Below are positions 38,199-63,208 of a DNA stretch of 64,000 bases, in pieces (the stretch's first letter is position 1; each line of letters starts with the position of its first letter). The DNA is taken from positions 8,063-72,062 of the forward strand of contig DATLHR010000146.1 in NCBI GenBank assembly GCA_035539815.1, in the 5' to 3' direction. The stretch comes from Kofleriaceae bacterium (lineage in GTDB: Bacteria > Myxococcota_A > Polyangia > Haliangiales > Haliangiaceae). The notes under the pieces were generated by a model. That model was not told the origin of the DNA, ran no database searches, and saw nothing but the letters and a program-made list of their open reading frames with translations. Position numbers and translations under genes: made by a program.

Positions 38199-38735
38199 AT
38201 GCGAACGATCGCCAGGTTCTTCGTCCTCACGATGGTGGTCGCGGGGTGCGGTGCGGAATCCAGCAGCGACAACCCGGATGCCGGCGACACGCCCGACGGC
38301 GACGTCTGCTCGATGCCGGACGCCGGCGTCGGCGAGACGTGCGCCACGAGCGATGACTGCACGTGCGGCACGACGTGCTCGGGGCTGCGTTGCGTCGCGC
38401 CGGCCGCGTGCAATGAAGCGCTGCTGTCGTGGGACGGCCCGGTCGCGAACACCGATGGCAGCTGCCTGACCGATCTCGGCGGCTTCAAGGTGCGCTGGGG
38501 CACGACGATGGGCGGCCCCTACGACAACGAAGCCGACGTCATGGCCAGCTCGTGCGCGATGGGCGAAGCGATGGCGTGCGGGGACGCGGGCGAGACCGTG
38601 ACGCAGCTGAAGTGCAGCTACCGTTTGACGGACCTTCCGAACGGTACCGTCTACATCACGGTCGCGTCGTACAGCACGACCGGCGTCGAGAGTGTTCCCA
38701 CCGGCGAGGCGTCCAAGATGATCGCGTGCCCGTGA
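38199..38735 (+). CDS. lipoprotein with Cys-rich segment and fibronectin-III-like domain
   Basis: Lipobox FFVLTMVVAGCG. The LSWDGPVANTDGS...GGFKVRWGTT...YRLTDLPNGTVYITVASYSTTGVES pattern is FN3-like. Confidence 0.55.
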   Translation: MRTIARFFVLTMVVAGCGAESSSDNPDAGDTPDGDVCSMPDAGVGETCATSDDCTCGTTCSGLRCVAPAACNEALLSWDGPVANTDGSCLTDLGGFKVRWGTTMGGPYDNEADVMASSCAMGEAMACGDAGETVTQLKCSYRLTDLPNGTVYITVASYSTTGVESVPTGEASKMIACP

Positions 38736-38748
38736 TACGGTCGCGCCC

Positions 38749-41700: not shown

Positions 41701-42789
41701 GACGATGACGACGGGTGCACCAGCCAGTGCGTTGAGGGCGTGGTGTGCGATGCGACCGCGTTCCCCGGTGGTAATCGCTTCACGGTCGATCCGTTCACCG
41801 GTCACTGCTACGTCGCCTACGACGACACGATGACGACCTACGCCGACGCGCAGACCGCATGCGTCGACGCGGGCGGTTACCTGGCCACCATCACCAGCGC
41901 CGGCGAGCAGACCATCGTCGCGTCGCTCCAGGCCGCAGACCAGTCGCCGTGGATCGGGGCGGCCGACGACGCGAACACGACGGACACCGTGTTCCAGTGG
42001 GTCACCGGCGAGACGTGGGCCTATACCAACTTCGCCACGGGCGAGCCCGACAACGACGAAGGACTCGGCGCTGCCGCGGACTGCCTGCACCTCGTCGATG
42101 GCGAGCCGACGTGGGCCGACACCAACTGCAACCTGACGACGTTCGTCGTCGGTCAGATCTGCGAGGTCGAGCCGGAGGCGTGTGGCGACAGCGTGATCCA
42201 GCCCGGCGAGACCTGCGATGACGGCAACGCGACGGATGGCGACGGCTGCAGCGCGACGTGCACGATCGAGCCGATCCTGATCAGCGAGTACGTCGAGGGC
42301 GCCAGTTTCAACAAGGCGATCGAGCTCCGCAATCCCTCGGTGACCACCCCGTACGACCTCGCGGCGAATGCGTGTGTCCTCCAGCAGCACAACAACGGCA
42401 GCATGACCGTGTCGTCCTCGTTCTCCCTTACCGGCACGATCGCGCCGAATGACGTGCGGGTGTTCTGCGATGATGCGACTACTTCGCAGCCGTTGAAGGA
42501 TGTCTGCGACGTGCTCACCAACTCTGCGGTGTTCGACTTTAATGGAGACGATGCACTGGTGCTTCGCTGCGGCGGCGTCGTTCTCGATGTCATCGGCCAA
42601 ATTGGCGTGGACCCTGGCAGCGAGTGGGGCACGGGCCTGACGTCCACGCAGGACAACACGCTCCGCCGCAAGTGCACCGTCACGCGTGGCGACACCGATG
42701 GCACCAACGCGTTCGACCCGGCCACCGAGTGGGACGGCTTCGCCGTCGATACCTTCGACGGCCTGGGCGTGAACGAGTGCGCGCCCTAG
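38749..42789 (+). CDS. giant secreted adhesin-like lipoprotein: 10 cadherin-like ~95-aa repeats, Cys-rich repeat, C-type lectin domain, Cys-rich repeat, lamin-tail domain
   Basis: 1346 aa. Lipobox VAATVLAGCG. Repeat consensus is NDAPVAVDD..T.EDT.L.I....LLANDTD.DGD.L.VTAV..A.NGTV.L.G..ITFTP.ANF.GTATF.YTVSDG...DTGTVTVTV. The lectin-like segment is WIGAADDANTTDTVFQWVTGETWAYTNFATGEPDN...CLHL....WADTNC. The LTD-like segment is ILISEYVEGASFNKAIELRNPS...GDDALVL. Confidence 0.85.
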   Translation: MLLARVLGHSFIVAATVLAGCGDNIVRTGGENTAPVVEPLSLSTTEDLPVTGTLVATDADGDPLTLTLGTPMHGTVTNAELALTYTPEANFNGADTFSVTVSDGTTETVATVTVIVTPTNDGPVAVDDSFATPEDTALVLTEAQLVANDTDVDAGDTLSVTAVSGATNGTVALAGTTITFTPTTDFVGNATFTYTVSDGTSTDTGTVTVAVGGANDAPVAVDDDATTAEDTPLVISDATLISNDSDPDGQTVTVTAVDNATNGTVALASGDVTFTPDANFVGTATFEYTLSDGTLIDTGLVTVTVTPVNDAPVAVDDTANTDEDTAVVIDAADLLANDTDVENDALVVTIVDNASSGTVAIAGTDITYTPAANFTGTATFDYTVSDGNLTDVGTVTVTVGAVDDAPVAVNDTIDAVEDTPIMIDASDLLANDTDGDGDTLTITAVGTASSGTASLSGTVITYTPAPNANGTVTFTYTITDGTSTATATVTVNVMAVNDAPVAVDDMRATAVDTPLVVSGTDLAANDLDVDGDTLMVTAVANAMNGTVQLAGGIVTFTPAAGFDGTATFEYTVFDGVLMDTGTVTVTVIPNVVPVAVDDTASTAEDTALVLDGATLVANDVDPDPQTLVVSAVANATNGSVQLAGTTITFTPAANFEGAATFEYTVSDGISTDVGLVTVNVTAAPDAPTATDDTATVAEDSSVMIPSATLLANDSDPDTGAVLSITTVGNASNGTVSFAGGIVTYTPAANFEGTATFTYTVSDGTLTDTGTVTVTVTPVNDAPEAVGDSATTPEDTQLVFTAANLALNDLDIDVGATLSVTAVGNATNGTVQLAGGAITFMPAANFNGTATFEYTVSDTIASDTGVVTVTVTPVNDAPVAGDDTVTALGNTDTLIAEATLLANDNDIDGPSLSVTAVGDAMNGSVSLAGGVITFTPTTDFLGTASFTYTVSDGTVSDTATVTVSVESACGDGVVTPDEECDDGDLDDDDGCTSQCVEGVVCDATAFPGGNRFTVDPFTGHCYVAYDDTMTTYADAQTACVDAGGYLATITSAGEQTIVASLQAADQSPWIGAADDANTTDTVFQWVTGETWAYTNFATGEPDNDEGLGAAADCLHLVDGEPTWADTNCNLTTFVVGQICEVEPEACGDSVIQPGETCDDGNATDGDGCSATCTIEPILISEYVEGASFNKAIELRNPSVTTPYDLAANACVLQQHNNGSMTVSSSFSLTGTIAPNDVRVFCDDATTSQPLKDVCDVLTNSAVFDFNGDDALVLRCGGVVLDVIGQIGVDPGSEWGTGLTSTQDNTLRRKCTVTRGDTDGTNAFDPATEWDGFAVDTFDGLGVNECAP
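38839..41640 (+). repeat. 10 tandem coding repeats (~280 nt / ~95 aa each) inside the adhesin gene
   Basis: Repeat units begin at ENTAPVV, NDGPVAV, NDAPVAV (x3), DDAPVAV, NVVPVAV, PDAPTAT, NDAPEAV and NDAPVAG. DNA-level similarity is visible (recurrent gtcgacgac...gaggacacg...aacggcaccgtc...acgttcacgcc). Confidence 0.8.
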
Positions 42790-43567: not shown

Positions 43568-44671
43568 TCAGGGTTCAATCGTCGAGTCGGTCACGATGAT
43601 CGGGGTGTCGTCGTGCGCGGAGATCATCGGGTACTGCGTGTACCAGCTGCCGCCGGTGTTGTGCGTGATCGTCGAGCGGTCGATCCGGACGTCGCCGGTG
43701 TGATTGTTGGAGACGAAGAAGATGGCACTGCCGTGCTGCACGACGTCGTTGTCGTGGATGAGGGTGCCGCAGACGGTCAGGGTCATCTCGTTGCCGTCGT
43801 TGTAGATCGCGCCGCCGCTGCCACCGCCCGGCGTGTCGGCCTGCGCCGGGTTACCGCCGTTGCCGATGGCGTGGTTGTGCGAGAACACGCTGTTGAGCAC
43901 CGTCCACGACACGCCGATGCTGCTGATCCCGCCGCCGTTGCTGCACGTGTTGCCGTAGCCCTCGGCGCCGCCGAACGTGGAGTCGACGACGTAGAGCGGC
44001 TCGCCGTTGAACTGGCTGAACGCGCGCACCGCGGCACCGCCGACGTCGGGACCGGTGTCGGCGCACACGTTGTTGAAGAACCTCGACTTCACGATGCGCA
44101 GCCGCCCACCGCGCGCCCAGATCGCGCCGCCGCCGTCGTACTCGGTCTCGTGCTTGGAGCTCGCGTCGATGAAGGTGAGGTTCTGGACGGTGAGGCGAGG
44201 GTGATCCTGGTCCTGACAGTGATCGGTGGTCCAGTGCTGGGCCTGGTCGCACGTGTTCATGTAGAGGATGCGCGTGCGCCCGGCGCCGCTGAGCGTGACC
44301 TTGCCGCCGCCGTCGATGACGATCTCGGGCCCGGTGTCGTTGAAGATCTTCGCCGGCCGGTCGAGCGTGATGGTCACGGGATCCGGACCGCAGTCGAACG
44401 TGATCACACCGCCCGCCGCGACCGCCGCGATGAAGGCGTCGCCCGTGCAGCTCTCGGGCGTCCCCGTGCCGACGACCGTGCGCGGGCTCGAGCTGTCGGC
44501 CAGGCCGGCGCCCGCGGGCACCGTGCAGCCGCCGTTCGGATTGCCCGCGGCGGGACCGGTCACCGGATCCGTCATCGGATCCGGTGGCGGTTGATCGTCG
44601 CCATCGCCTTCGCTGCCGCCGCAGCCGGCTGCGAGCACGAGCGCGGCGAGCATGGACTGGACGCGTGTCAT
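43568..44671 (-). CDS. lipoprotein with right-handed parallel beta-helix (pectate-lyase-fold) repeats
   Basis: ATG at 44671 gives MTRVQSMLAALVLAAGCGG. There are recurrent GGGAIW / GGGISS / GGSGGAIYNDG..... turns with N/D/G-rich ~22-aa periodicity. Confidence 0.65.
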   Translation of the reverse strand: MTRVQSMLAALVLAAGCGGSEGDGDDQPPPDPMTDPVTGPAAGNPNGGCTVPAGAGLADSSSPRTVVGTGTPESCTGDAFIAAVAAGGVITFDCGPDPVTITLDRPAKIFNDTGPEIVIDGGGKVTLSGAGRTRILYMNTCDQAQHWTTDHCQDQDHPRLTVQNLTFIDASSKHETEYDGGGAIWARGGRLRIVKSRFFNNVCADTGPDVGGAAVRAFSQFNGEPLYVVDSTFGGAEGYGNTCSNGGGISSIGVSWTVLNSVFSHNHAIGNGGNPAQADTPGGGSGGAIYNDGNEMTLTVCGTLIHDNDVVQHGSAIFFVSNNHTGDVRIDRSTITHNTGGSWYTQYPMISAHDDTPIIVTDSTIEP

Positions 44672-44702
44672 GGGGCCCTCCGCGCCCCAGTCTACGCCGC
44701 GG

Positions 44703-45722
44703 CTACTTCGCCTGATAGTTCTGATAGACGGGGGCCGCCGCGGCCGGCGCACCCTCGACCCGCTCGTCGGCGAAGTCGACCGAGGCCTTCGCCGCGTGCG
44801 GGGCCTTCTTCATCTTGGTGCTCGCCGCCTTGGTCTTGTAGCTCTCCTGCTCCGCGGCCTTGTCCACGTCGGCCATGAACGTCTTGACCTGGGTCGCCGT
44901 CGGCGGCTTCGCATCCTTCGCGGCGGCGATGTCGATCGCCTCGGTGAGGTACGACTTCACCAGCTTCTTCTGCAGCTTGTTGAACAGCTTCGGCGACGCG
45001 AACATGTCGACGGTGGCGACCTTGCCGTTGAGCGCGACGGCGTACCCGATCATCCGGTTGCGGTCCTCGGCCGGCAGCTTCGCGAGCGCCGCCTCGATCG
45101 CCTTCTCGCGCTTGGCCAGCGTGCCGTCCGACTGCTGCGTCGCCACCTTGCGGTAGGTGTCCGTCGAGCTCTTGGTCTTGCGCAGCTCGTTCTTGCGCGC
45201 GACCTCGTTCCACACGTCCTGCTGGCTCTCGTAGCTGGCCTGGTAGCGCAGGCGTCCGTGCGCGAGCGCGTTCGCCGTCGCGAACGACTTGCTCGAGTTG
45301 TCCCACCGGCCGTGCTCGACGCAGAACACGGGCACCTCCTGCGTCGTCTTGGCCGGGATGACCGTGTTCTTGCCGATGATGCGGTCCTGCTTGCCGCCGA
45401 GGATCACCTCACCGGCGAGCAGGAACACCGGGCGGTCGGCGTCGTTGCGGAACGTCAGGCTGTTGACGTTGCCCTCGTCGAACTCGGTGATGCGGACCTG
45501 CTTGCTCGCCATGCCCTCGTCGAGCACGAGCAGCTCCGGGTCCTGCTTCGGCATCCCGGTGGCGGTCGCGACGATCGGTGTGATCGTCACGCTGTCGACC
45601 TGGATCGGCGCCAGCAGGGTGGCCTGCTCCGAGAGTGCGAGCTTCGGATCCGACTTGGTGTCGGCGGCGGCGGTGATGGACAGCGTTAGGGCGATCGCGG
45701 ACAGACCAAGAGCAGGACGCAT
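44703..45722 (-). CDS. secreted hypothetical protein, Lys-rich, conserved CVEHGRW motif
   Basis: 339 aa with signal peptide MRPALGLSAIALTLSITAAA. The coding periodicity is clear. Lys content is unusually high and local GC is lower than in neighbouring genes. Confidence 0.6.
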   Translation of the reverse strand: MRPALGLSAIALTLSITAAADTKSDPKLALSEQATLLAPIQVDSVTITPIVATATGMPKQDPELLVLDEGMASKQVRITEFDEGNVNSLTFRNDADRPVFLLAGEVILGGKQDRIIGKNTVIPAKTTQEVPVFCVEHGRWDNSSKSFATANALAHGRLRYQASYESQQDVWNEVARKNELRKTKSSTDTYRKVATQQSDGTLAKREKAIEAALAKLPAEDRNRMIGYAVALNGKVATVDMFASPKLFNKLQKKLVKSYLTEAIDIAAAKDAKPPTATQVKTFMADVDKAAEQESYKTKAASTKMKKAPHAAKASVDFADERVEGAPAAAAPVYQNYQAK

Positions 45723-45811
45723 GGGGCCTCCAGGGATGTGGAACGCCCTTCCGACACATCCGATCTAACCGACGTTGCTCATCGGATGTCAGGCCTGCGT
45801 AAGGAGCCGGT

Positions 45812-48157: not shown

Positions 48158-49435
48158 TCAGCGCCCGATCGTCGCCCGCAGCGTGCCGAACGCCTGCACG
48201 CCCCAGCGCGGAGCGAAATCCAGCGCCGTCACCTCGGGTGCGTAGAACGAGCGCGCGACCTCGACGAGCACCGACGCCTCCAGGTGCTTCGTCAACGTGC
48301 GCGCCGCGGTCAGCGACACGCCACCGGTCACCGCCTTCGCCGTGACGACCTCCATCTCGCCCGGCACGTGGACCTCGGTTCGTGCGAGCGCGCCGTCGAG
48401 GGTCGCGCGCGTCCTGTCCGTCATCACCTCGAGGCCCGCCGTGAGCCGCGAGTCGACCGCGACATAGCCATCGGGCACCGCCTGGGTGTCATGCAGGCCC
48501 TTCAGGTAGCCGCGCACGTGACGACCTCCGGCCTCGAGCTGCGCCATCGCGCGCGGCTTCGTCACCTCGACCTGCCGCTCGTACTCGGTCACGAGCTCGC
48601 CGGCGCCCGCCGAGCTGAGGCCGCCACCCGCGCTGGCGTAGAGCGGCCCGAGCTTCAGGTTCTCGATCCCGAGGATCCACAGATGCACGCCGCCGCCGGA
48701 GCTGTTCTCTCCCAACCCCGACTGCGCGAACGCGCCGCCTGCACGAAACGCATCCACGGTCAGGTTCCTGGGCTCGCCCCACGGCGCCACGTGGTCGCGC
48801 ACGTACCGGAACGTTGCGACGTCGACCGTCTGCAGCTGGGAGACCGCGGAGCTCGCCGACCACAAGAACACCCAGTCCGTCCACACCTCGAACAGCACCA
48901 TGTCGCCCGGTGCGAGCACCGTGTTCGGATCCGCGGGTGGCGGCGGCGGGTCATCGGGATGATGCGCGGTGAGCAACAGCCGGTGCGCGTTCATGCGCAG
49001 CGGCTGCCAGTGAAAGCTCGCCGTCTCACGCCGATTGGTGCCCGCGCGCAGCTTCAGCGGCGCCAGCAGCGAGGGTCTGACATCCCACTCGAGGTGGTGA
49101 CCGAATTCCATCACGTTGATGGGGACGCACACGCTCGCCCACTGCTCCGCGCTCGCCCGCGCGCCGCGATTCCAGCCAAGCCGACCCTGGCCGCCGACGC
49201 GAACGTAGTCGCAGCGCGCGCTCGCCACGCGAACCTCGCCGCCGACGGCGCCGCCCGCCTCGGCAGCGTCGGTGCTGCCGCCGCTCAGCTCCGCGAAGGC
49301 GTGGGCGCGGAGGCCGTGCACGGAGGTATCGCCGAACAGCCCCTTGCCTCGCTCGGACTCGAGCGTCATCGGCTCCTCGGCGAAGGCATCTGCAGCGCAC
49401 GCGGAGACGAGGACGAGGGCGACCCATCGCGGCAT
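48158..49435 (-). CDS. secreted hypothetical protein, beta-rich (possible outer-membrane protein)
   Basis: 425 aa with signal peptide MPRWVALVLVSACAADAFA. The alternating hydrophobic pattern is beta-rich. No family assignment. Confidence 0.45.
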   Translation of the reverse strand: MPRWVALVLVSACAADAFAEEPMTLESERGKGLFGDTSVHGLRAHAFAELSGGSTDAAEAGGAVGGEVRVASARCDYVRVGGQGRLGWNRGARASAEQWASVCVPINVMEFGHHLEWDVRPSLLAPLKLRAGTNRRETASFHWQPLRMNAHRLLLTAHHPDDPPPPPADPNTVLAPGDMVLFEVWTDWVFLWSASSAVSQLQTVDVATFRYVRDHVAPWGEPRNLTVDAFRAGGAFAQSGLGENSSGGGVHLWILGIENLKLGPLYASAGGGLSSAGAGELVTEYERQVEVTKPRAMAQLEAGGRHVRGYLKGLHDTQAVPDGYVAVDSRLTAGLEVMTDRTRATLDGALARTEVHVPGEMEVVTAKAVTGGVSLTAARTLTKHLEASVLVEVARSFYAPEVTALDFAPRWGVQAFGTLRATIGR

Positions 49436-49545
49436 CGCCGCACGCAGAGCAAACGGCGCTCCACGCGAAGATCGGGCAGACCCTGGCAGGACGCGGGATC
49501 GAGCTGTCGAGAACTGCGCAGATCGGGTGCCCCGCGGTGCTGCCG

Positions 49546-49582
49546 AAACGAGAAACGGCGCGCTGCCGAGGCAACGCGCCGT
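49546..49582 (-). terminator. intrinsic terminator downstream of the EF-G paralog
   Basis: On the minus strand: ACGGCGCGTTGCC-TC-GGCAGCGCGCCGT (13-bp stem with one G-U pair) followed by TTCTCGTTT. It starts 19 nt after the TAA stop. Confidence 0.5.
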
Positions 49583-49600
49583 CCCGCAGACCCGAAGCAG

Positions 49601-51781
<2,181 letters not shown>

Positions 51782-51952
51782 GGGGACGTCTCCAGCAGGC
51801 CCGAAGGCCCAGTCAAATGCCGATAAAGGCGCGGGATTGCTACCTTGTCTACGGCGGCAATGCAAGTGCCGACTGGGAGGGAGTGTCCTCGGGCGCGTGC
51901 CGGGACATTTCAACAGCTTGGACGGGCCGGTTTGATACCCTCGAGCTTCCCC

Positions 51953-53812
<1,860 letters not shown>

Positions 53813-53855
53813 TTCCTGCTGACGAGGCCGCGCCCGTATGTCCTACTGCGTTCAG

Positions 53856-55319
53856 ATGAGTCGCCCCGGTGCGCCGCGCCTGCTCGTGCTCGGAGTCGTC
53901 ATGCTGATCGGGAGGAGCGCCGCTGCCGAGCCGGTGTCCACGGCGATCCCGCCCGACGGGCGCGTGATGGTGCCGACGCCTGACTCGGCCTTCGTCACCG
54001 CCCCGCACGCGCCGATCTCCTCGACGTTGTTCCTCAACCGCTGCGCCGGCGGCTGCTCGATCGTCGGCGGCTCGGTCAACGACGCGCGCTCGAACATGTC
54101 GACGATCCCGAACCCGGGGAGGACCTACACGGTCGGCGAGTTCCGGGCGGACGGGCAGGTGGGCGCGGCGGCCGATACGGAGTGGAACGCGGTGGTGCAG
54201 TGCATCCGCGACGTCTACTCGCCGTACCAGGTCACGGTCACCGACACGCGTCCGAGCGCGGGCGCCTACCACATGGCGATCGTCGCGGGGCTGCCCGAGG
54301 AGGTCGGCTGGCCGGCGGCGACACAAGGCGTGGCGCCCGGCTCCTGCAACCCCCAGGACAACGTGATCTCGTTCTCGTTCGCGAACGCGCACCCCGGCAC
54401 GGGGACCGATCGCGTGCTCAACCTGTGCTGGACGGTCGCGCAGGAGTCGGCGCACTCGTTCGGCCTGCCCGACCACGCGTGGGAGTTCGCCGACGGCAGG
54501 TCGGCGTGTAATGACCCGATGACCTATCGCACCGACTGCGGCGGTCAGAAGTTCTTCCGCAACGCCGATGCGTCGTGCGGTGACTTCGCACCGGGGAGCT
54601 GCCGCTGCGGTTCGACGCAGAACTCGCACCGCGAGCTCATCGACGTCTTCGGCCCGGGCACGCCGAGCACCGGCGCTCCGACGTCGGTGATCACGCTGCC
54701 GCTCCCCGACACGCAGCTCGGCGCGGTGGTCGGCGTGCAGGCCGGCAGCCGCCGCGGCATCGCGAAGGTGCAGCTCCGGGTGAACGGCTTCAAGTGGGCC
54801 GAGGTGAAGGGCACCCCGTTCGGCGCCAACGGTCAGGCGAACCCGGGCACCTACGCGATCACCGTGCCCTCCAACCTGCCCGACGGGATCGTCGACCTCG
54901 TCGCGCGCGCGTGCGACGACCTCGGTGCGTGCACGGACTCCGCCGTGGTGACCGCGACCAAGGGCGTGCCGTGCACGTCGGCGGACACGTGCGCCGAGCG
55001 GCAGCACTGCGAGGCCGGCAAGTGCCTGTGGGATCCTGCGGCCGGCGAGCTCGGCGACTCGTGTTCCTTCGATCAGACGTGCCTGAGCGAGATGTGCAGC
55101 CCGACCGTCGAGAACAGGATCTGCACCCAGACCTGCTCGACCGACATGGCATGCCCGAGCGGGTTCGACTGCCTGAAGACGACCGCCGGTGACTTCTGCT
55201 ACCTCCCGGACGGCGGAGGTTGCTGTTCTGCCGGTGACCGTGCTCACCATGGTTACCTGCAAGGCGGCCTGAGCGCCCTCGTGCTCGCCCTCGTGGTGCG
55301 CCGCCGTCGCCGCCGATAA
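53856..55319 (+). CDS. secreted metzincin/snapalysin-like protein, paralog 1 (QESAHSFGLPDH), Ig-like and Cys-rich domains, GGCC...RRRRRR tail
   Basis: ATG at 53856 (the ORF opens at 53838). Signal peptide ...LLVLGVVMLIGRSAAAEP. See findings for motifs. Confidence 0.75.
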   Translation: MSRPGAPRLLVLGVVMLIGRSAAAEPVSTAIPPDGRVMVPTPDSAFVTAPHAPISSTLFLNRCAGGCSIVGGSVNDARSNMSTIPNPGRTYTVGEFRADGQVGAAADTEWNAVVQCIRDVYSPYQVTVTDTRPSAGAYHMAIVAGLPEEVGWPAATQGVAPGSCNPQDNVISFSFANAHPGTGTDRVLNLCWTVAQESAHSFGLPDHAWEFADGRSACNDPMTYRTDCGGQKFFRNADASCGDFAPGSCRCGSTQNSHRELIDVFGPGTPSTGAPTSVITLPLPDTQLGAVVGVQAGSRRGIAKVQLRVNGFKWAEVKGTPFGANGQANPGTYAITVPSNLPDGIVDLVARACDDLGACTDSAVVTATKGVPCTSADTCAERQHCEAGKCLWDPAAGELGDSCSFDQTCLSEMCSPTVENRICTQTCSTDMACPSGFDCLKTTAGDFCYLPDGGGCCSAGDRAHHGYLQGGLSALVLALVVRRRRRR

Positions 55320-55429
55320 GAGGCGCGGCGCCTCGATATCACCGCGCGATCGGAAGTCAGCGCCGCGCGCCCGCAGCGTGACGAATCCTGCTGACGGCTC
55401 CGTCGGACCTGTAGTATTTCGCCGTCTTG

Positions 55430-56959
55430 ATGATCCGTCCTCATGCGCCGTTCTTTGTTGCGGTCGGGGTCGCGGCGGCCCTGACGGGTACCGCTGCGGC
55501 CGAGCCGAGCTCGACGTCGACCTCCAGCGATCCCACGCGCGAAGCGATTCGCGCCGCCATCGCGAACGCGGAAGCCAACGGCCAGAAGACCGTCGGCGTG
55601 TTCCTCCCCGAGGCGCCGTCGGCGCTGCCGCACGCCGCGATCTCCACCGTCATGTACATGAACCGCTGCACCGGCGGTTGCGTGATCAATGGCGGCACCG
55701 CAGACGACTCGCGGACCTTCACGTCGCAGATCCCGAACGCGGGCACTCACCCGATGGGTGAGTTCCAGGAAGGCGGCATGACCGGCGCCGCCGCGGACGA
55801 CGCGTGGAACGAGCTCGTCGCCTGCGTGAAGGAGGTGTACTCGCCGTACGGCGTCCAGGTCACCGACCAGCCGCCGACCGCCGCGGCCTACCACATGGCG
55901 ATCGTCGCGGGCCTGCCCGAGGACATCGGTCTGTCGTCGAACACCGGCGGCGTCGCGATCAGCACCTGCGCCCCGCGCGAGAATGGCATCTCGTTCACGT
56001 TCGCCAACGCCGAGGGCGGCTCGGGCACCAGCCGCATGCTCAAGCTGTGCTGGTACGTGGCGCAGGAGTCCGCGCACAACTTCGGGCTCGCGTATCACGC
56101 GTGGAAGTTCACCGCCGATGGGCGCTCGGCCTGCAACGACCCGATGACGTATCGGGAGGACTGCGGCGGTCAGAAGTTCTTCCGCAACGGCAACGTGAGC
56201 TGCGGTGACTTCTCGGAGAACCAGCCCGCGTGCATGTGCGGCCCGTCGCAGAACTCGCACCTCAAGCTGCTGGCCGTGTTCGGCGAAGGGACGCCGACCT
56301 ACGGCAAGCCCAACGCCGCCGTGACGCTGCCCGTCGAGGGCGGTCAGCTCGGCGCCGTCGTCGGCGTGCAGGCGGGGAGCAAGCGCGGTATCGCGAAGCT
56401 GGAGCTGCTCGTCAACGGCTTCAAGTGGGCCGAGGTGACGGGCGCCCCGTTCGGCCCGAACGGCCAGGCGAACCCGAGCCCGTATACGATCCCCGTGCCC
56501 AGCAACCTGCCGGGCGGCGTCGTCGAGCTCGTCGCGCGCGCGTACGACGACCTCGGCGACTACGCCGACTCGCCGGTCGTGATGGCGACGAAGGGCGCCC
56601 CGTGTGCGTCCGCGGACTCGTGCGCCGCCGGTCAGAAGTGCGAGGCCGGCAAGTGCTTCTGGGATCCGCCGAGCGGCGAGATCGGTGACAGCTGCGGCTT
56701 CGATCAGGCGTGCCTCAGCGGCAAGTGCAGCCCGACCGCCGAGGATCGCATCTGCACGCAGACCTGCGCGCCCGGTGTGATGGGGAGCTGCCCCGAGAAC
56801 TTCGACTGCCTCCAGACGTCGGCGGGTAACTTCTGCTACCTCCCGCCCGAAGAAGGCGGTTGCTGCTCCGTCGGTGGCGGCCCGCAGGCGGTCTACGTGC
56901 ACGGTGCGCTGAGCGCGCTCGTGTTCGGCTTCCTCGTGTTCCGGCGGCGCCGCCGATGA
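55430..56959 (+). CDS. secreted metzincin/snapalysin-like protein, paralog 2 (QESAHNFGLAYH)
   Basis: ATG at 55430 (TTG at 55427 in the ORF track). Signal peptide FFVAVGVAAALTGTAAAEP. Tail EEGGCCSVGGGPQAVYVHGALSALVFGFLVFRRRRR. Confidence 0.75.
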   Translation: MIRPHAPFFVAVGVAAALTGTAAAEPSSTSTSSDPTREAIRAAIANAEANGQKTVGVFLPEAPSALPHAAISTVMYMNRCTGGCVINGGTADDSRTFTSQIPNAGTHPMGEFQEGGMTGAAADDAWNELVACVKEVYSPYGVQVTDQPPTAAAYHMAIVAGLPEDIGLSSNTGGVAISTCAPRENGISFTFANAEGGSGTSRMLKLCWYVAQESAHNFGLAYHAWKFTADGRSACNDPMTYREDCGGQKFFRNGNVSCGDFSENQPACMCGPSQNSHLKLLAVFGEGTPTYGKPNAAVTLPVEGGQLGAVVGVQAGSKRGIAKLELLVNGFKWAEVTGAPFGPNGQANPSPYTIPVPSNLPGGVVELVARAYDDLGDYADSPVVMATKGAPCASADSCAAGQKCEAGKCFWDPPSGEIGDSCGFDQACLSGKCSPTAEDRICTQTCAPGVMGSCPENFDCLQTSAGNFCYLPPEEGGCCSVGGGPQAVYVHGALSALVFGFLVFRRRRR

Positions 56960-58395
56960 AGTGGGCGCTCGTCGGCGTCTCGCTCTTCGGAGCGCTCGCG
57001 GTCGCGCACGCCGACAAGCGCCTCGAGACGCAGGCGGTGCCGCGGAGCGCACTCGCCCCCGCGCAACCGCACGCGACCGGCGCCGGCACGCTGTACCTCA
57101 ATCGCTGCGTCGGCGGCTGCGTGATCCACAAGGCGGGCATCAACGACGCGCGCACGCGCACGTCGTCGATCCCCAAGGGCAACGCGACCGACTACACGGT
57201 CTCGCCGTTCGCGTGGGGCGACGCCGAGTGGGACGCGATCGTGCAGTGCATGAAAGAGGTCTACTCGCCGTACAAGGTGACGGTCACCGACGAGCCTCCG
57301 GCGGCGGGCGTCGCCTACAACGAGGCGATCATCGCGGGCTCCGATGAAGAGCTCGGGGTGTCCGCGGGCGGCATCGCCCCGGTGACCGGCGACTGCATGC
57401 CGTACAACTACGTCATCAGCTTCTCGTTCGCGAATGACTACGGGCCGAACGGCCGCGTGTTCCAGCTGTGCCGCGTCGCAGCGCAGGAGAGCGGCCACGC
57501 GTACGGCCTCGACCACGCGTTCGAGTTCCTCGACGGCTCGTCGGCGTGCCGAGATCCGATGAGCTACCGCCTCGACTGCGGTGGCCAGCGGTTCTTCCGC
57601 AACGAGGCCGCCGTGTGTGGGGAGTACAACGCGCGCGACTGCGCGTGCGGGCCGACGCAGAACTCGCACCTCAAGCTGCTCGGCGCGCTCGGGGCTGCCA
57701 CCCCGATCACGCGGCCGCCCGAGGTGACCGTCACGTCGCCCGCGGACGGCGCGACGATCACCGCGGGCACGCACGTGATCTCGACCGCCTCGGCGCAGCG
57801 CGGGATCAAGACCGTCGAGCTGTGGCTCAACGGATACCTGTGGGGCACGGCCAAGGGAGCTGCGTTCGAGGCGGACGGCCAGCCCGCCGCGGCCTACAGC
57901 ATCCGCATCCCCGACGAGGTTCCGGATGGCGTCATCGACATCGTCGTCAAAGCGAAGGACGACATCGACGTCACGACCACGGCGACCCTCACGGTCACCA
58001 AGGGCGCTCCGTGCGCGTCCGCCGAGAGCTGCCTCGACGGCCAGCGCTGCGAGGAGGGCAAGTGCTTCTGGGATCCACCGTCGGTGGAGCTCGGCGAGCC
58101 GTGCTCGTTCGCGCAGGAGTGCTTGAGCGGCGTGTGCGTCGAGACGTCGGATGGCCAGTTCTGCTCGCAGAACTGCCTGCCCGGCATCGGCGACAGCTGC
58201 CCCGAGGGCCTGACCTGCGTCGAGAACACGCCGACCGCGGGCTTCTGCCTCGCCGGCGACGGCAGCTGCGACGGTGGCTGCTGCGGCTGCGCCATCGTCG
58301 ACGAGCGCGCCACGGGCACGGGCCCGGCCACGGCGCTCACGATGCTGTTTCTCGGCGGGGTCGGCTACGTCGTGTTCCGCCGCCGCCGCCGCTAA
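56956..58395 (+). CDS. secreted metzincin/snapalysin-like protein, paralog 3 (QESGHAYGLDH)
   Basis: ATG at 56956 overlaps the paralog-2 stop (ATGA). Signal peptide MKWALVGVSLFGALAVAHA. Tail CDGGCCGCAIVDE...LFLGGVGYVVFRRRRR. Confidence 0.75.
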   Translation: MKWALVGVSLFGALAVAHADKRLETQAVPRSALAPAQPHATGAGTLYLNRCVGGCVIHKAGINDARTRTSSIPKGNATDYTVSPFAWGDAEWDAIVQCMKEVYSPYKVTVTDEPPAAGVAYNEAIIAGSDEELGVSAGGIAPVTGDCMPYNYVISFSFANDYGPNGRVFQLCRVAAQESGHAYGLDHAFEFLDGSSACRDPMSYRLDCGGQRFFRNEAAVCGEYNARDCACGPTQNSHLKLLGALGAATPITRPPEVTVTSPADGATITAGTHVISTASAQRGIKTVELWLNGYLWGTAKGAAFEADGQPAAAYSIRIPDEVPDGVIDIVVKAKDDIDVTTTATLTVTKGAPCASAESCLDGQRCEEGKCFWDPPSVELGEPCSFAQECLSGVCVETSDGQFCSQNCLPGIGDSCPEGLTCVENTPTAGFCLAGDGSCDGGCCGCAIVDERATGTGPATALTMLFLGGVGYVVFRRRRR

Positions 58396-58401
58396 GACTC
58401 G

Positions 58402-59130
58402 TTACTCTTTCTTCTCTTCCGGCTTCGCCTCGTCCTTGGCCGCGGGCGACGGAGGCGTGGCGGCACCGACCGCGATCTGCGCCGGCCCGATCGAGTCACG
58501 CGCCGTCATCGCGCACTTGCGGATCGACTCGTTGTCCACGTTCGATGCGCCGCCGCGGACCTGCAGGATGCACTTCGTGTCGGCGTCGAAGAACCGGTAC
58601 ACGTAGACGTCATCGACGCCCTGCGCGACGGTCTGCCGGCACGCGTACGTGCCCATCGTCTCGTCGTCGGCGCGCTTCATCTCGGCGCATTTCGCCTTGA
58701 AGCGCTCCGGATCCTCGATCGTCCAGCAGAACGCGCTGACGTTGCACAGCTCGTCGCCGGCCAGCACGCCGAGCCGGCCTTCCTTCTTCAGCTTCGCCGC
58801 CTGCTCGGAGGCCGACAGCGGCTTGCCGCCGCGGTTCAGCGAGCACGACGCGGCCGCTTCCGCTTCATCCTTGCGCTCGGACACGCTCAGCGGCTCGGGC
58901 TCGCCGAGCGCCGTCTGGAACGCGGCCACGTCGATCAGCTGCGCGCACGGGATCTTCGCCTGGCCCGGCACGGGCGGCGAGATCTTCTTGGGCACCTCGC
59001 CCGAGGCAGCCTTCGCCTTGAGCTCGGCCTCGGCTTCCTTCCTGGCTTGCTCGGCGCCTTCGTTGGCGCCCTTGGTACACGCGGGAACGATTGCAGCGAG
59101 ACAGACGACGAGTGAGATCGATGCCCTCAT
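58402..59130 (-). CDS. lipoprotein, Lys/Glu/Ala-rich, hypothetical
   Basis: ATG at 59130 gives MRASISLVVCLAAIVPAC. There are 8 Cys in the mature part. No family call. Confidence 0.55.
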   Translation of the reverse strand: MRASISLVVCLAAIVPACTKGANEGAEQARKEAEAELKAKAASGEVPKKISPPVPGQAKIPCAQLIDVAAFQTALGEPEPLSVSERKDEAEAAASCSLNRGGKPLSASEQAAKLKKEGRLGVLAGDELCNVSAFCWTIEDPERFKAKCAEMKRADDETMGTYACRQTVAQGVDDVYVYRFFDADTKCILQVRGGASNVDNESIRKCAMTARDSIGPAQIAVGAATPPSPAAKDEAKPEEKKE

Positions 59131-59212
59131 GACGGCCCGCAACCTATCACGGGTACGTGACTTCAGAGCGATTCTGGGTACAGTGGCCGCCGCGGGGGCC
59201 GCACCCGCGATT

Positions 59213-59287
59213 GCGCCCATAGCTCAGTTGGATTAGAGCACTGACCTTCTAAGTCAGGGGCCGCAGGTTCGAGCCCTGCTGGGCGCG
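59213..59287 (+). tRNA. tRNA-Arg (anticodon TCT)
   Basis: The cloverleaf was folded by hand: acceptor GCGCCCA/TGGGCGC, D-arm GCTC-AGTTGGATTA-GAGC, anticodon arm CTGAC-CTTCTAA-GTCAG, variable GGGCC, T-arm GCAGG-TTCGAGC-CCTGC, discriminator G. No encoded CCA. Confidence 0.85.
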
Positions 59288-59446
59288 CCCCGATCGACTG
59301 ACGTGCGCCGTTGCCACACGCGCTCTACCGGCGATCACGAGCGAATCGTGATCCGAGCACTCCGTGATGAAAATCTCTGAGAGGGGTTCCTCGCGGTTCT
59401 CGGAGACATGCCTATACTCCGAACACTTTCGACTACGGAGATGGGC

Positions 59447-61906
59447 ATGCACAAACACTGGTTGATGGCGCTCGTAGCCGCTGGGCTACTCCTTGGAGCG
59501 ACGGGGTGTCCCGGTATCGATGTAGATGAGAACGAGGTCGGGACCGCGGGACCGCAGGTGGAGTTCGATCCAGCGGCGAGGATCATCCCGTTCCCGAACA
59601 ACCTCCTGATCGACCCGATGACGGGCCTGGTCAATCTGCCCGCGCAGTGCAACGAGTCGGCGACCGCGAAGGCCCTGCGCGAGCAGGTGCTGAACCAGCT
59701 CGACGGCTTCGGCACGTTCGAGGTCGCGATCACCGTGACGTTCACCGAGCCGGTGGATGAAGCGTCGCTGCAGGACCGCGTGGTCCTGTTCCAGCGCACG
59801 GCGGGCGCCAACGCGATCGATCCGGCCGCCGCGCAGGAGGTGCCGGTGATCGTGCGCCGCACTCAGACCACGCGATTCGCGCCCGACTGCGCGACGTCGT
59901 CGATGGTCGAGCAGGTCGCGATCATCCCGCTCGTCCCGCTCGAGCAGAAGTCGAACTACACGGTCGCGTTGCTGAAGGGCATCAAGACGGCGACCGGGGA
60001 GGAGTTCGGACAGTCCTTCACGTGGGCGCTGATCAGCCAGGCCAACCCGCCGGTCGTCCTCGACGACCAGGGCAACGTGATCGTCAATCGCACGCCGCTC
60101 AGCCCGGTCAATCCGGTCGACGAGAACATGAACGGCATCAGCGACGATCTCGAGTCGCTGCGCGGCATCGCGCTGCTGTGGCAGGCGCACGCGCAGGCGG
60201 TCGCGTTCCTCGTCGAGAAGGGCATCCCTCGTAGCGACATCCTGCTCGCGTGGGAGTTCAAGACGCAGACGACGACCGACCCGCTCGATCCAGCGGTCGC
60301 GGGCTCGCCGGCGGCGAACGTGTACAAGAACCCTGCGACGCAGATCGGCTCGCTGACGGCGACGATCAACCGTACGGCCGCACCGTACGTGCTGTGCGAC
60401 CCGGCGGGTGGCGGTCCTGGCACCGACAACAACACCCAGTGCTTCCTCAAGATCGCTCTCGGAGCCGCGTCCGGCGCTCCGACGAACCAGATCTACGCCA
60501 CCGGAAACGCGACTTGTGCGGCCGTCGGCTGCGCGGCCGTGGGCGATGTGCTCGGCGGCAAGTTCAATTCGAAGCAGTACCAGATCGAGACGCCGAACCC
60601 GTTCGATCCGTCCAAGCCCATCCCGGGCCCGTGGAACAACCCGCGAACCCCGACGGTGGTGAAGGATGAGGCGATCGACTTCATCGCGATCGTCCCCGCG
60701 TCGCCGGCGCCGGCCAACGGTTATCCGACCGTGGTGTTCGGCCACGGCCTCGGTAGCTCGAAGAAGACGATCTTCGCGATCGGTCCCCAGCTGAGCGCAC
60801 CGCAGGCAGCGTTCGGCTTCACCAGCGGCTTCATCACGATCGCGATCGACTTCGTCGGCCACGATAGCCGCGCGGTCCGGATCTCGAGTGACGCCGCGAT
60901 CGGCTGCGACGGCACGCCGGATCCGACGGTGAAGCCGCAGTGCTTTGCACCATTCCTCTCGCCGAACCTCGCGACGACGCGCGACGGCATCCGGCAGAGC
61001 GTGCTCGACGTGCATGGCTTGGTCGAGATGCTCAAGGCGTGCGGCAACACGACCTGCGCGACGGCCGCGACCGGGGCCGGAAACTTCCACGTCGACCCGG
61101 CGCACATCTCGTATCTCGGCATCTCGCTGGGCGGCATCATGGGCTCGACGGCGGTCGCCTCGAAGACCGACATCAAGACCGGCCTGCTCAACGTGCCCGG
61201 TGTCGGTTGGGTGGACATCCTCGAGAACACGCAGACGCTCGCGATCCGCTGCTCGCTCGTCGACGGCCTGATCGATGCCGGCATCCTCGTCGGCGACAAG
61301 TCGACGGGGCAGAACCCGCTGTGCTTCGGTGACACGTGGAAGACGCAGCCTGGCTATCGCCAGTTCGCGGCGATCGGCCGCTGGGTCCTCGACCCCGCGG
61401 ACCCCGCGAACTTCACGCAGCGCCTCGCTGCGCGTCGGTTCTTCATCCAGGAGGTCGTCGGCGACACCGTCGTGCCGAACCTCGCGACGGAGAACGAGGG
61501 CGCGCTGACGGGTGTGCTGGGGAGCGCGTTCGCAGGAGCGTGCACGCCGCAGTCCGGGACCGCGCTGCCCACCCCGGAGGTCCTCTCGATGCCGATGACG
61601 AACAAGTTCGCGCGGTACATGTCCACGACGACGCCGGGACCGTGCAACAACGCGGAGAACACGAACCCGGGCACTCCGGGCCAGGTGTTCGTCCACTCGT
61701 CGTTGCTGCGTCCGGCACCCGGTCACTGCGTGAGCATGCCGATGAATACCTGCACCTCGACGAACCAAGCCACGGGTGACGCGCAGTGCACGGCCGCCAA
61801 CGGCGGCACTGCCGACACGTGTGACATCGCCTCGGTGGCTCGTGGGCAGCTCGGTACGAAGCGGCTCCAGACGGATGCCATCACCTACCTCATCCTCAAC
61901 CGCTAA
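59447..61906 (+). CDS. secreted lipoprotein lipase/esterase (alpha/beta hydrolase, GISLG nucleophile)
   Basis: ATG at 59447 has GGAG 6 nt upstream. Lipobox LLLGATGC. The N-terminal region IIPFPNNLLIDPMTGLVNLP resembles bacterial lipase N-terminal domains. GxSxG occurs in ISYLGISLGGIMGS. Confidence 0.7.
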   Translation: MHKHWLMALVAAGLLLGATGCPGIDVDENEVGTAGPQVEFDPAARIIPFPNNLLIDPMTGLVNLPAQCNESATAKALREQVLNQLDGFGTFEVAITVTFTEPVDEASLQDRVVLFQRTAGANAIDPAAAQEVPVIVRRTQTTRFAPDCATSSMVEQVAIIPLVPLEQKSNYTVALLKGIKTATGEEFGQSFTWALISQANPPVVLDDQGNVIVNRTPLSPVNPVDENMNGISDDLESLRGIALLWQAHAQAVAFLVEKGIPRSDILLAWEFKTQTTTDPLDPAVAGSPAANVYKNPATQIGSLTATINRTAAPYVLCDPAGGGPGTDNNTQCFLKIALGAASGAPTNQIYATGNATCAAVGCAAVGDVLGGKFNSKQYQIETPNPFDPSKPIPGPWNNPRTPTVVKDEAIDFIAIVPASPAPANGYPTVVFGHGLGSSKKTIFAIGPQLSAPQAAFGFTSGFITIAIDFVGHDSRAVRISSDAAIGCDGTPDPTVKPQCFAPFLSPNLATTRDGIRQSVLDVHGLVEMLKACGNTTCATAATGAGNFHVDPAHISYLGISLGGIMGSTAVASKTDIKTGLLNVPGVGWVDILENTQTLAIRCSLVDGLIDAGILVGDKSTGQNPLCFGDTWKTQPGYRQFAAIGRWVLDPADPANFTQRLAARRFFIQEVVGDTVVPNLATENEGALTGVLGSAFAGACTPQSGTALPTPEVLSMPMTNKFARYMSTTTPGPCNNAENTNPGTPGQVFVHSSLLRPAPGHCVSMPMNTCTSTNQATGDAQCTAANGGTADTCDIASVARGQLGTKRLQTDAITYLILNR

Positions 61907-61921
61907 CCCCACGAGGAACCA

Positions 61922-63208
61922 ATGCGCACTCACATGAAGACTCTCTCTGCTGCGTTGTTCCTCGTCGCCGGCGCCGCGGGCGTCGCCTCGGGCAACGCGT
62001 TCAACATCAACGAGCACGACGCGAAGGTCACCGGTCGCGGTGGCGCGAGCGTCGCGTCCAACACCGATGCGTCGTCGGTCATCTTCAACCCGGGCGGCAT
62101 CCCGGTCGCCGAAGGGACGCAGGTCTCGGTCGGTGGTTCGCTCTACATCGCGAAGGGCTCGTACGAGCCGCCGGGCGAGGAGCGGATCAAGACCACCTCG
62201 CCCCCGACCCCGGTGCCGAACCTGTTCGTCACCTCGCGCGTCCACGACCTGGTCGCCGTCGGGTTCGGCGTGCACTTCCCGTTCGGCCTCAGCGTCTCGT
62301 GGCCGATCAACCACCCGCAGGCAGACGTCATCACGAACCAGACGCTGCGGACGTACTTCCTGACCCCAGCGGTCGGCATCAACCTCAACAAGTACGTGCC
62401 CGGTCTGTCGATCGGCGGCGGCGTCGACATCGTGCCGGCGACGGTCGAGCTCAAGCGCTCGATCTTCTTCGGTGACGTGACCGGCCAGGCCCACCTCGGC
62501 GGTGATGCGGTCGGCTTCGGTGGCCGTGCGGGCATCCAGTATCACCCCGAGGCGCTGCCGCAGCTCCGCGCCGGCCTGATGTGGCGCAGCAAGGTCGACC
62601 TCGACTTCGAGGGCCAGGCTGACTTCGACATCGCGCAGCCGTTCCGCGATCAGCTGCCGCCCGACGGCGACATCTCGACGTCGATCACGCTGCCGCAGTC
62701 GATCTCCGGCGGTGTCGCGTACAACCCGATCCGGGACCTCCAGGTCGAGCTCAACGTCGTCTGGATCAACTGGAACGTGTTCGACGAGCTGAACATCCAG
62801 CTGCCGGGCGGCGCGGAGTCGATCACGATCGAGGACTACGAGAACACGATCACGTGGCGGGTCGGCGCCGAGTACGCGCTGCCGAAGTACAAGGCGGCCG
62901 TGCGCGCGGGCTTCATCTATGACCCGACGCCGATCCCCGACACCGCGCAGACGGCGCAGCTCCCCGACGTGAACCGCAAGAACGTCACGCTCGGCGGCAG
63001 CTACTACTTCGGCGACTACTCGGCGAACCTCGGCCTGCTCTGGGTGACACCGGGCAACCGCGACACGTCCGACGAGCTCTACATGCCGGTGTTCAAGGCG
63101 AACTACGGCGTTCAGGCCTTCGTGACGTCGTTGAGCATCACCGGCACGTTCGGTGCGGGCGCTGCGAAGACGCCGGCGCCGGACCCGACGCAGACCGCCA
63201 GCCGCTGA
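61922..63208 (+). CDS. FadL/OMPP1/TodX-family outer-membrane hydrophobic-compound transporter
   Basis: Signal peptide then GNAFNINEHDAKVTGRGGASVA...ASSVIFNPGGI, the typical FadL-family N-terminus. A beta-strand pattern runs throughout. 428 aa. Confidence 0.8.
   Translation: MRTHMKTLSAALFLVAGAAGVASGNAFNINEHDAKVTGRGGASVASNTDASSVIFNPGGIPVAEGTQVSVGGSLYIAKGSYEPPGEERIKTTSPPTPVPNLFVTSRVHDLVAVGFGVHFPFGLSVSWPINHPQADVITNQTLRTYFLTPAVGINLNKYVPGLSIGGGVDIVPATVELKRSIFFGDVTGQAHLGGDAVGFGGRAGIQYHPEALPQLRAGLMWRSKVDLDFEGQADFDIAQPFRDQLPPDGDISTSITLPQSISGGVAYNPIRDLQVELNVVWINWNVFDELNIQLPGGAESITIEDYENTITWRVGAEYALPKYKAAVRAGFIYDPTPIPDTAQTAQLPDVNRKNVTLGGSYYFGDYSANLGLLWVTPGNRDTSDELYMPVFKANYGVQAFVTSLSITGTFGAGAAKTPAPDPTQTASR

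Follow-up and report, generated by a model that had tools for sequence, protein, structure and literature searches.

Tandem MYXO-CTERM-type proteins of Kofleriaceae with a predicted metzincin domain and glutamine at the first metal-ligand position

The one studied natural precedent for a metzincin with a QEXXH metal site is VMP3 of Volvox carteri, reported to carry the natural motif QEXXHXXGXXH and to prefer copper (Heitzer & Hallmann 2002, J Biol Chem 277:28280, as cited in bioRxiv 10.1101/2020.06.30.165720, PMC9818292). Three consecutive genes whose products have the same substitution, Gln for the first zinc-ligand His, were found at bases 53856–58395 in a 64,000-nucleotide stretch of DNA from a Kofleriaceae bacterium (positions 8,063 to 72,062 of contig DATLHR010000146.1, GenBank assembly GCA_035539815.1), referred to here as the window. 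The three products, paralogs 1 to 3, share an architecture made up of a signal peptide, an N-terminal domain of about 230 amino acids (aa), an immunoglobulin-like (Ig-like) Big_7 domain, a Cys-rich module and a MYXO-CTERM-type tail. As described in the works citing it, VMP3, an extracellular-matrix metalloproteinase, shows that a QEXXH site can be catalytically active, and resembles the window proteins in being an extracellular metzincin with Gln at the first ligand and in coming from a gene family that has expanded and been amplified in tandem. It differs in being eukaryotic, in carrying hydroxyproline-rich modules and in having a domain of the M11/gametolysin family. No match to Peptidase_M11 at E≤1 was found for the window proteins or for their relatives with His at the first-ligand position (His-type, as opposed to Gln-type), and the change from His to Gln shared with VMP3 is therefore most likely convergent. 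In a quantum-chemical study of MMP-8, an H197Q model gave more stable Cu(II) coordination.

Among the larger families, Reprolysin_3 (PF13582) and Reprolysin_4 (PF13583), which are M12B-like, are closest in sequence, and the Foldseek matches described below include structures of ADAMs and adamalysins. The window proteins do not reach the thresholds of either family, with no match at E≤1 in the Pfam search, and differ from reprolysins in having Gln in place of the first His and in the added Big_7, Cys-rich and MYXO-CTERM modules. The Met-turn of adamalysins is of the C-I-M type, whereas that of the window proteins reads C-x-D-P-M-[TS]-Y. The astacins (M12A) and serralysins (M10B) share a Met-turn of the form M-x-Y with the window proteins and supplied the top Foldseek matches of paralog 3. 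Their Met-turns read SxMHY and SxMSY, respectively, with the Tyr serving as a fifth ligand of the zinc. This is the Tyr of the 'tyrosine switch' (PMC3427221). The window proteins differ from both families in that they show no sequence match to either, lack the RTX domain of serralysins and have Gln as the first ligand. The acidic residue near the third His also precedes it here, whereas it follows it in astacins and serralysins.

Snapalysin (M7), the neutral protease of Streptomyces caespitosus, carries HExxHxxGLPDH, and the same GLPDH is present in paralog 1. Snapalysin structures 4hx3 and 1kuh are among the Foldseek matches listed (E 7e-4 to 2e-3). However, snapalysin is about 132 aa long, GLPD is found in paralog 1 alone of the three, most copies in the family have GLDH, and no Pfam M7 match was found for the window proteins. 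In an earlier examination of the letters and open reading frames (ORFs), here called the sequence-only reading, the three proteins had been described as snapalysin-like. That likeness is confined to GLPD in paralog 1 and does not extend to membership of the family or to length, the domain being about 100 residues longer. In its M-x-Y form, the Met-turn is nearer to those of astacins and serralysins. The Myxococcus proteins of NF041905 (MXAN_2677/MXAN_2678) have the same overall design, combining a metalloprotease domain with a MYXO-CTERM sorting tail in Myxococcota. The NF041905 model gave local scores of 12–18 bits around HExxH in His-type relatives, against a cutoff of 250, and matched neither the scanned Gln-type relatives nor the window proteins in the NCBIfam search. 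The array proteins and NF041905 are different families.

Metal-site motif and predicted fold of the N-terminal domain

All three paralogs contain the motif QES[AG]HxxGL(x)xH, with C-x-D-P-M-[TS]-Y after it. In paralog 1 the motif is AQESAHSFGLPDH (aa 196–207, nucleotides 54441–54476, + strand), and in QESAHSFGLPDH Gln196, encoded by CAG, occupies the position of the first zinc-ligand His of metzincins, with Glu197, His200, Gly203 and His207 retained. The motif of paralog 2 is AQESAHNFGLAYH (aa 213–224, nucleotides 56063–56098, + strand), in which QESAHNFGLAYH has Gln213 (also CAG) and the third His at +11. Paralog 3 has AQESGHAYGLDH, or QESGHAYGLDH (aa 177–187, nucleotides 57484–57516, + strand), with Gln177 again encoded by CAG. 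The substitution of Gln for the first His in all three copies, with the catalytic Glu retained, is thus as the sequence-only reading had it. The spacing of the third His from the Gln is +11 in paralogs 1 and 2, due to a one-residue insertion before this His (GLPDH at 54468–54476 and GLAYH at 56090–56098), and the canonical +10 in paralog 3. Among 137 scored copies from the genome loci described below, 130 have the +10 spacing and seven have the one-residue insertion, which also occurs, as GIPNH, in the array's first copy in the closest genomes (L001 and L002); GLDH is found in paralog 3 and in approximately 95% of the family. The Met-turn-like sequence lies 11 or 12 residues after the third His and reads CNDPMTY in paralog 1 (54507–54527, + strand, including Met222 and Tyr224), CNDPMTY in paralog 2 (56132–56152, + strand) and CRDPMSY in paralog 3 (57547–57567, + strand). 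No fourth copy of the motif was found in a scan of the whole window. The motif is far beyond what chance would produce, as it recurs in approximately 140 homologous copies from other genomes.

The N-terminal domain of the window proteins matched no Pfam or NCBIfam family, and neither a single-sequence nor a profile search found a sequence match in the PDB. AlphaFold2 models of the domains of paralogs 1 and 3 had a predicted local distance difference test score (pLDDT) of 87.3 and 89.6, respectively, and a predicted template modelling score (pTM) of 0.87. When both models were compared with the PDB using Foldseek, the matches listed were exclusively metzincins, with probabilities of up to 1.00. 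Those listed for paralog 1 included MMP-2, MMP-3, MMP-13, adamalysins, serralysins, astacin and ADAM33, the best being MMP-2 (8h78_B, E 2e-3, probability 0.99). For paralog 3, there were 21 matches at E≤1e-3, all of them metzincins, with serralysin 1om8 at the top (5.8e-5) and astacin (6ht9_A, 1.6e-4), ADAM-8 (4dd8), MMP-1 and snapalysin (4hx3) among the others. Template modelling (TM) scores, normalised to the target, were 0.45–0.60 for single-domain targets. In the model of paralog 1, a long helix (160–179) has the motif at its C-terminal end, after which comes a Gly turn. The order of elements in both models is the long helix with the motif, the Gly turn, the third His, the Met segment and a C-terminal helix, matching the metzincin layout described in PMC3427221. 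The succession of secondary structures likewise agrees with the catalytic fold of the clan, made up of a twisted beta-sheet, backing helix, active-site helix and C-terminal helix.

A profile search with the domain found 1,836 cluster representatives (50% identity clusters) at E≤1e-3, 363 of them at E≤1e-30. About one fifth of the best 150 of the 1,836 matches have the canonical HExxHxxGL[DE]H together with the same C-x-DPM[TS]Y, and in the family alignment the His and the Gln share one column. The His-type relative P0058 scored 23.2 against Reprolysin_4 (gathering cutoff 22), and P0158 scored 26.1 against Reprolysin_4 (cutoff 22) and 25.1 against Reprolysin_3 (cutoff 22.4). The proposal that the N-terminal domain is a metzincin-type zincin is therefore borne out by the Foldseek matches of two models and by the His-type relatives that pass the Reprolysin_3 and Reprolysin_4 cutoffs. 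By predicted fold and by homology, the domains belong to the metzincin clan and break the signature of the clan at the first His. Homologs are named 'hypothetical protein', 'MYXO-CTERM domain-containing protein' or 'Ig-like domain-containing protein' in the public data, and this metzincin family of the Kofleriaceae/Haliangiales (Myxococcota) has been unannotated until now.

Conservation of glutamine and its interchange with histidine

Conservation was examined in 74 loci from species-representative genomes, nearly all of them metagenome-assembled genomes of Kofleriaceae, Haliangiales or Myxococcota, and in a wider sample of 128 domain-complete sequences from all searches. The first-ligand position is Gln in 138 and His in six of the 144 copies in the genome loci, and the same column in the wider sample contains 105 Gln, 22 His and one Met. 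The single Met is in P0142 (1003 aa), which has AAMEIAHSFGLDH with the motif at aa ~898; as only one sequence is involved, this could reflect an error or else be one more natural variant. Glu197, His200, His207 and Cys191 are conserved in 100% of the 128 sequences, and the Gly at +7 in 93%. The Met-turn suggested in the sequence-only reading is likewise a candidate that conservation supports, with Tyr224 at 98%, Asp220 at 96% and both Pro221 and Met222 at 94%. The Gln codons, with the three copies in the window included, are CAG in 129 cases and CAA in 12, indicating synonymous turnover at a position that has stayed one transversion away from the His codon CAC. Pseudoenzymes usually lose the catalytic Glu, the ligand His and the Met-turn residues. 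The invariance of the Glu and both other His, along with the dominance of Gln in the orthologs, supports selection rather than decay, as had been proposed. On these patterns of conservation we judge Gln to be the selected, family-typical state and not a local degeneration.

The strongest covariation with the identity of the first ligand was seen at the next two positions in the helix, +2 and +3. Gln-type sequences follow Q-E-[ST]-A-H, with Ser or Thr at +2 in 88/105 and Ala at +3 in 84/105, and His-type sequences follow H-E-A-G-H, with Ala at +2 in 16/22 and Gly at +3 in 21/22. Intermediate motifs also occur, namely HETGH in P0058 and HESAH in P0092 and P0148. These coupled changes argue that the site was rebuilt around the Gln. 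A rough neighbour-joining tree required about eight changes between Gln and His, though this tree is star-like and without support values and was used only alongside nearest-neighbour identities. Four His-type sequences (P0058, P0092, P0158 and P0181) resemble Gln-type sequences more than they resemble any of the other His-type ones; identity between P0058 and paralog 3, for instance, is 56% in the domain and 47% for the whole proteins. From these comparisons, Gln and His appear to have been interchanged repeatedly, which is most easily understood if both serve at the metal site.

The two types are also found side by side. His-type copies are present within the syntenic arrays at approximately 10139 in L020, 10148 in L027, 9998 in L033, 4240 in L050, 7343 in L053 and 11563 in L047. 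They read HEVGHAFGLQH or HEAGHxFGLEH with DPMSY, and lie alongside Gln-type copies in the same arrays, in the order Q-H-Q for example. Most arrays consist of Gln-type copies, either one (25 loci), two (24 loci), three (16 other loci and the window) or four (two loci). The remaining compositions are QHQ in three loci, and QH, QQH and H in one locus each. The mixed arrays suggest a division of labour between isoforms.

A proposed remodelled metal site and the alternatives to it

Taken as a whole, the analysis favours the view that these proteins are metzincin peptidases anchored to the cell surface, that their metal site has been remodelled to Gln/His/His(/Tyr), and that they are probably active, with a possible change in metal preference. 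We hold this view with confidence slightly better than even. The sequence-only reading had offered altered metal coordination or a non-proteolytic binding function to account for the Gln, and the evidence leans to altered coordination. The catalytic metal would be held by the O-epsilon of the Gln, or by a water that the Gln holds, together with the two His and possibly the Tyr of the Met-turn, and a Tyr ligand could make the loss of one His more tolerable. The invariant Glu would act as the general base and the proteins would be active endopeptidases. Their metal affinity or preference would differ from that of canonical zinc metzincins, with copper the leading candidate by analogy with VMP3. 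The residues seen at this position, His, Gln and Met, also ligate copper in cupredoxins, where Met and Gln alternate as the axial ligand, but this is a weak hint rather than evidence.

The products would be exported by the Sec pathway, cleaved at the MYXO-CTERM tail by a myxosortase and displayed on the outer surface, with the Ig-like and Cys-rich modules serving as stalk or binding parts. For proteins with this type of tail, cleavage is carried out by MrtX, a myxosortase of the CPBP family, and display on the cell surface depends on the type II secretion system (PMC11980579). Tandem duplication would have led to the one to four copies per genome, sometimes with Gln- and His-type mixed, and labour could be divided between substrates or between metals.

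Several observations weigh against this interpretation. A change from His to Gln at a zinc ligand usually weakens zinc binding by orders of magnitude, and the +11 position of the third His in paralogs 1 and 2 may distort the metal site further. The star-like form of the tree also counts here. No copper- or other metal-handling gene was found among the neighbours of the array, where the genes checked were those for the kinase, lipoprotein, lipase-like protein, FadL, cadherin-repeat protein and ARPP-1 protein described below. The ratio of non-synonymous to synonymous substitution (dN/dS, by the Nei-Gojobori method) was 0.38–0.75 between the paralogs and against their L001 orthologs, and was set aside as uninformative, because a G+C content at third codon positions (GC3) of ~0.92 caps synonymous divergence.

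The Gln-type proteins might instead be pseudoproteases that have lost the catalytic metal and use the retained substrate cleft for binding or adhesion at the cell surface, acting alone or as a partner or regulator of His-type proteins. The first ligand is gone from all three copies, and no His-type copy was found in the array or in the rest of the window. The combination of Ig-like domain, Cys-rich module and surface anchor would suit an adhesin, the QHQ, QH and QQH arrays do pair the two types, and the array proteins evolve fast relative to their neighbours, being only 63–71% identical to those of L001, the closest genome, when the EF-G of the locus is 96% identical. However, the Glu and both His are invariant and the Gly, Met and Tyr nearly so in 128 sequences with approximately 45% identity, which is hard to explain without metal-dependent chemistry. 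The Gln is also fixed rather than drifting, a natural QEXXH metzincin is catalytically active in the case of VMP3, as that work is cited, and the array holds only Gln-type copies in most genomes. We regard loss of the metal as unlikely, though far from negligible. Rather less probable is that these are ordinary zinc endopeptidases in which zinc is bound by the two His with the Met-turn Tyr and/or the acidic residue of GL[DE]H, the Gln being a second-shell residue and the function unchanged. Tyr224 does lie two residues after the Met, where astacins and serralysins have their fifth ligand, Gln- and His-type sequences alike have an acidic residue just before the third His, and the frequent interchange of His and Gln suggests near-equivalence. 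Against this, the coupled changes at +2 and +3 argue for a site rebuilt around the Gln, and His-type members share the same Tyr and acidic residue, so that neither is a specific compensation for the loss of the His. We also know of no metzincin with a zinc site made up of two His and a Tyr. A coincidental motif in a domain unrelated to zincins, which the absence of Pfam, NCBIfam and PDB sequence matches for the window proteins might have suggested, is effectively refuted: only metzincins were found among the structural matches listed for two models, homologs with the full HExxHxxGLxH and a Met-turn pass the reprolysin thresholds, and the motif ends the predicted active-site helix and is followed by the Gly turn.

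If the Gln-type proteins are indeed peptidases with a remodelled site, a bolder proposal is that they form a large bacterial clade of zinc-independent surface metzincins, most plausibly using copper and convergent with VMP3. The alternation of His and Gln, and in one case Met, within and between arrays would then be an evolutionary metal switch, and the array might be coupled to the sensor kinase encoded upstream. We offer this tentatively and consider it doubtful at present.

Array genes, genomic context and implications

The three genes are co-directional and were delimited from the ORFs and GC3, which at 0.91–0.92 in the paralog frames matches the neighbouring genes and marks these frames as coding (the G+C content of the window is 70%). 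Paralog 1 (53856–55319, + strand) encodes 487 aa and has an alternative ATG at 53838. Paralog 2 (55427–56959, + strand) encodes 510 aa when counted from a TTG, but begins with TTG-ATG, making the ATG at 55430 the likelier start. Paralog 3 (56956–58395, + strand) encodes 479 aa, with its start codon and the stop codon of paralog 2 (TGA) sharing bases in the sequence ATGA. Paralogs 1 and 2 are 62% identical, each is 48–49% identical to paralog 3, and all three are collinear from end to end. The ORFs and the alignment thus agree with the tandem arrangement, ATGA overlap and common architecture given in the sequence-only reading, and the Ig-like motif, Cys-rich module and sorting tail that it listed were all located in the three proteins. 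The N-terminal LNRCxGGC that it reported is present in all three only as [LM]NRCxGGC, as paralog 2 has M in place of L. A cysteine-switch or propeptide role was considered for the segment containing PHA and LNRCxGGC, and the His of this segment was found not to be conserved in homologs.

In paralog 1, the signal peptide was placed by inspection at aa 1–24 and the metzincin-like domain at about aa 36–270, followed by the Ig-like domain at aa 275–337, the Cys-rich module from aa 369 and the MYXO-CTERM-like tail at aa 454–487. The Big_7 domain (PF17957, gathering threshold 24.1) was detected at aa 255–310 in paralog 3 (35.9 bits) and scored below the threshold in paralog 1 (20.1 bits). It was not detected in paralog 2 in the Pfam scan, though the sequence of paralog 2 aligns with the other two. 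The MYXO-CTERM model TIGR03901 (NCBIfam cutoff 20) was matched by paralog 2 (23.6 bits, tail at aa 476–510), and paralog 1 scored below the cutoff at 15.5 bits. No match to a MYXO-CTERM hidden Markov model was found for paralog 3 in the NCBIfam scan. By inspection, the tails of all three contain GGCC, a hydrophobic stretch and then RRRRR. All three also share CGGQ[KR]FFRN, QNSH, the Ig-like [VL]NG[FY][KL]W and the Cys-rich KGxPCxSAxxC...QxCExGKCxWDP.

The locus is syntenic across the family, in the order EF-G (− strand), Ser/Thr kinase (+), array, lipoprotein-like ORF (−), Big_5/lipase-N-like protein (+) and FadL (+). Of the 74 loci, 62 have a kinase homolog immediately upstream of the array, 58 have EF-G and 51 have the lipoprotein, counts that are limited by contig ends. 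In the window, the Ser/Thr protein kinase gene (51845–53812, + strand) ends 43 nucleotides before paralog 1, and its product matches Pfam Pkinase (4.2e-38). At its N-terminus the kinase has an anti-sigma-like zf-HC2 motif (5.1e-06); it also has a transmembrane segment, and its C-terminal domain contains Cys. A functional link between the array and this conserved kinase is possible. No promoter- or terminator-like site was found in a scan of 51500–59500, which includes the gap between the kinase gene and the array. From their divergence relative to EF-G, the array products are fast-evolving surface proteins.

Downstream of the array are the lipoprotein-like ORF (58402–59220, − strand), which has no Pfam match, the gene for an 832 aa Big_5/bacterial-lipase-N-terminal-like protein (59408–61906, + strand) and that for a FadL/TodX outer-membrane transporter (61907–63208, + strand), all three of them syntenic in many related genomes. 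Further upstream, an ORF at 38722–42789 (+ strand) encodes a protein of 1,355 aa with about ten cadherin-like/Big_9 repeats, then DUF4215 repeats and a C-type lectin domain, which is probably another large surface protein. The product of 44703–45764 (− strand) has a strong match to the ARPP-1 domain (ARG and Rhodanese-Phosphatase-superfamily-associated protein, E 2.6e-67), and the ORFs adjacent to this gene, at 43568–44809 and 48158–49600, had no Pfam match.

Because the three-His zinc site has been treated as defining the metzincins, annotation using motifs or hidden Markov models misses these proteins completely. A natural, conserved Gln/His/His site is present in more than 100 of the 50% identity clusters among the best 150 of the 1,836 profile matches. 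The Gln-type proteins, their His-type sisters and the intermediates make up an evolutionary series in which the identity of a first-shell ligand can be set against metal selectivity and activity in zincins, a question approached so far via one algal enzyme and engineered mutants. If the isoforms in mixed arrays do represent a metal switch, the cell would gain isoenzymes for different metal regimes. Activity with copper or another metal would broaden the metzincin chemistry of bacteria and would make the proteins relevant to surface proteolysis by predatory soil myxobacteria.

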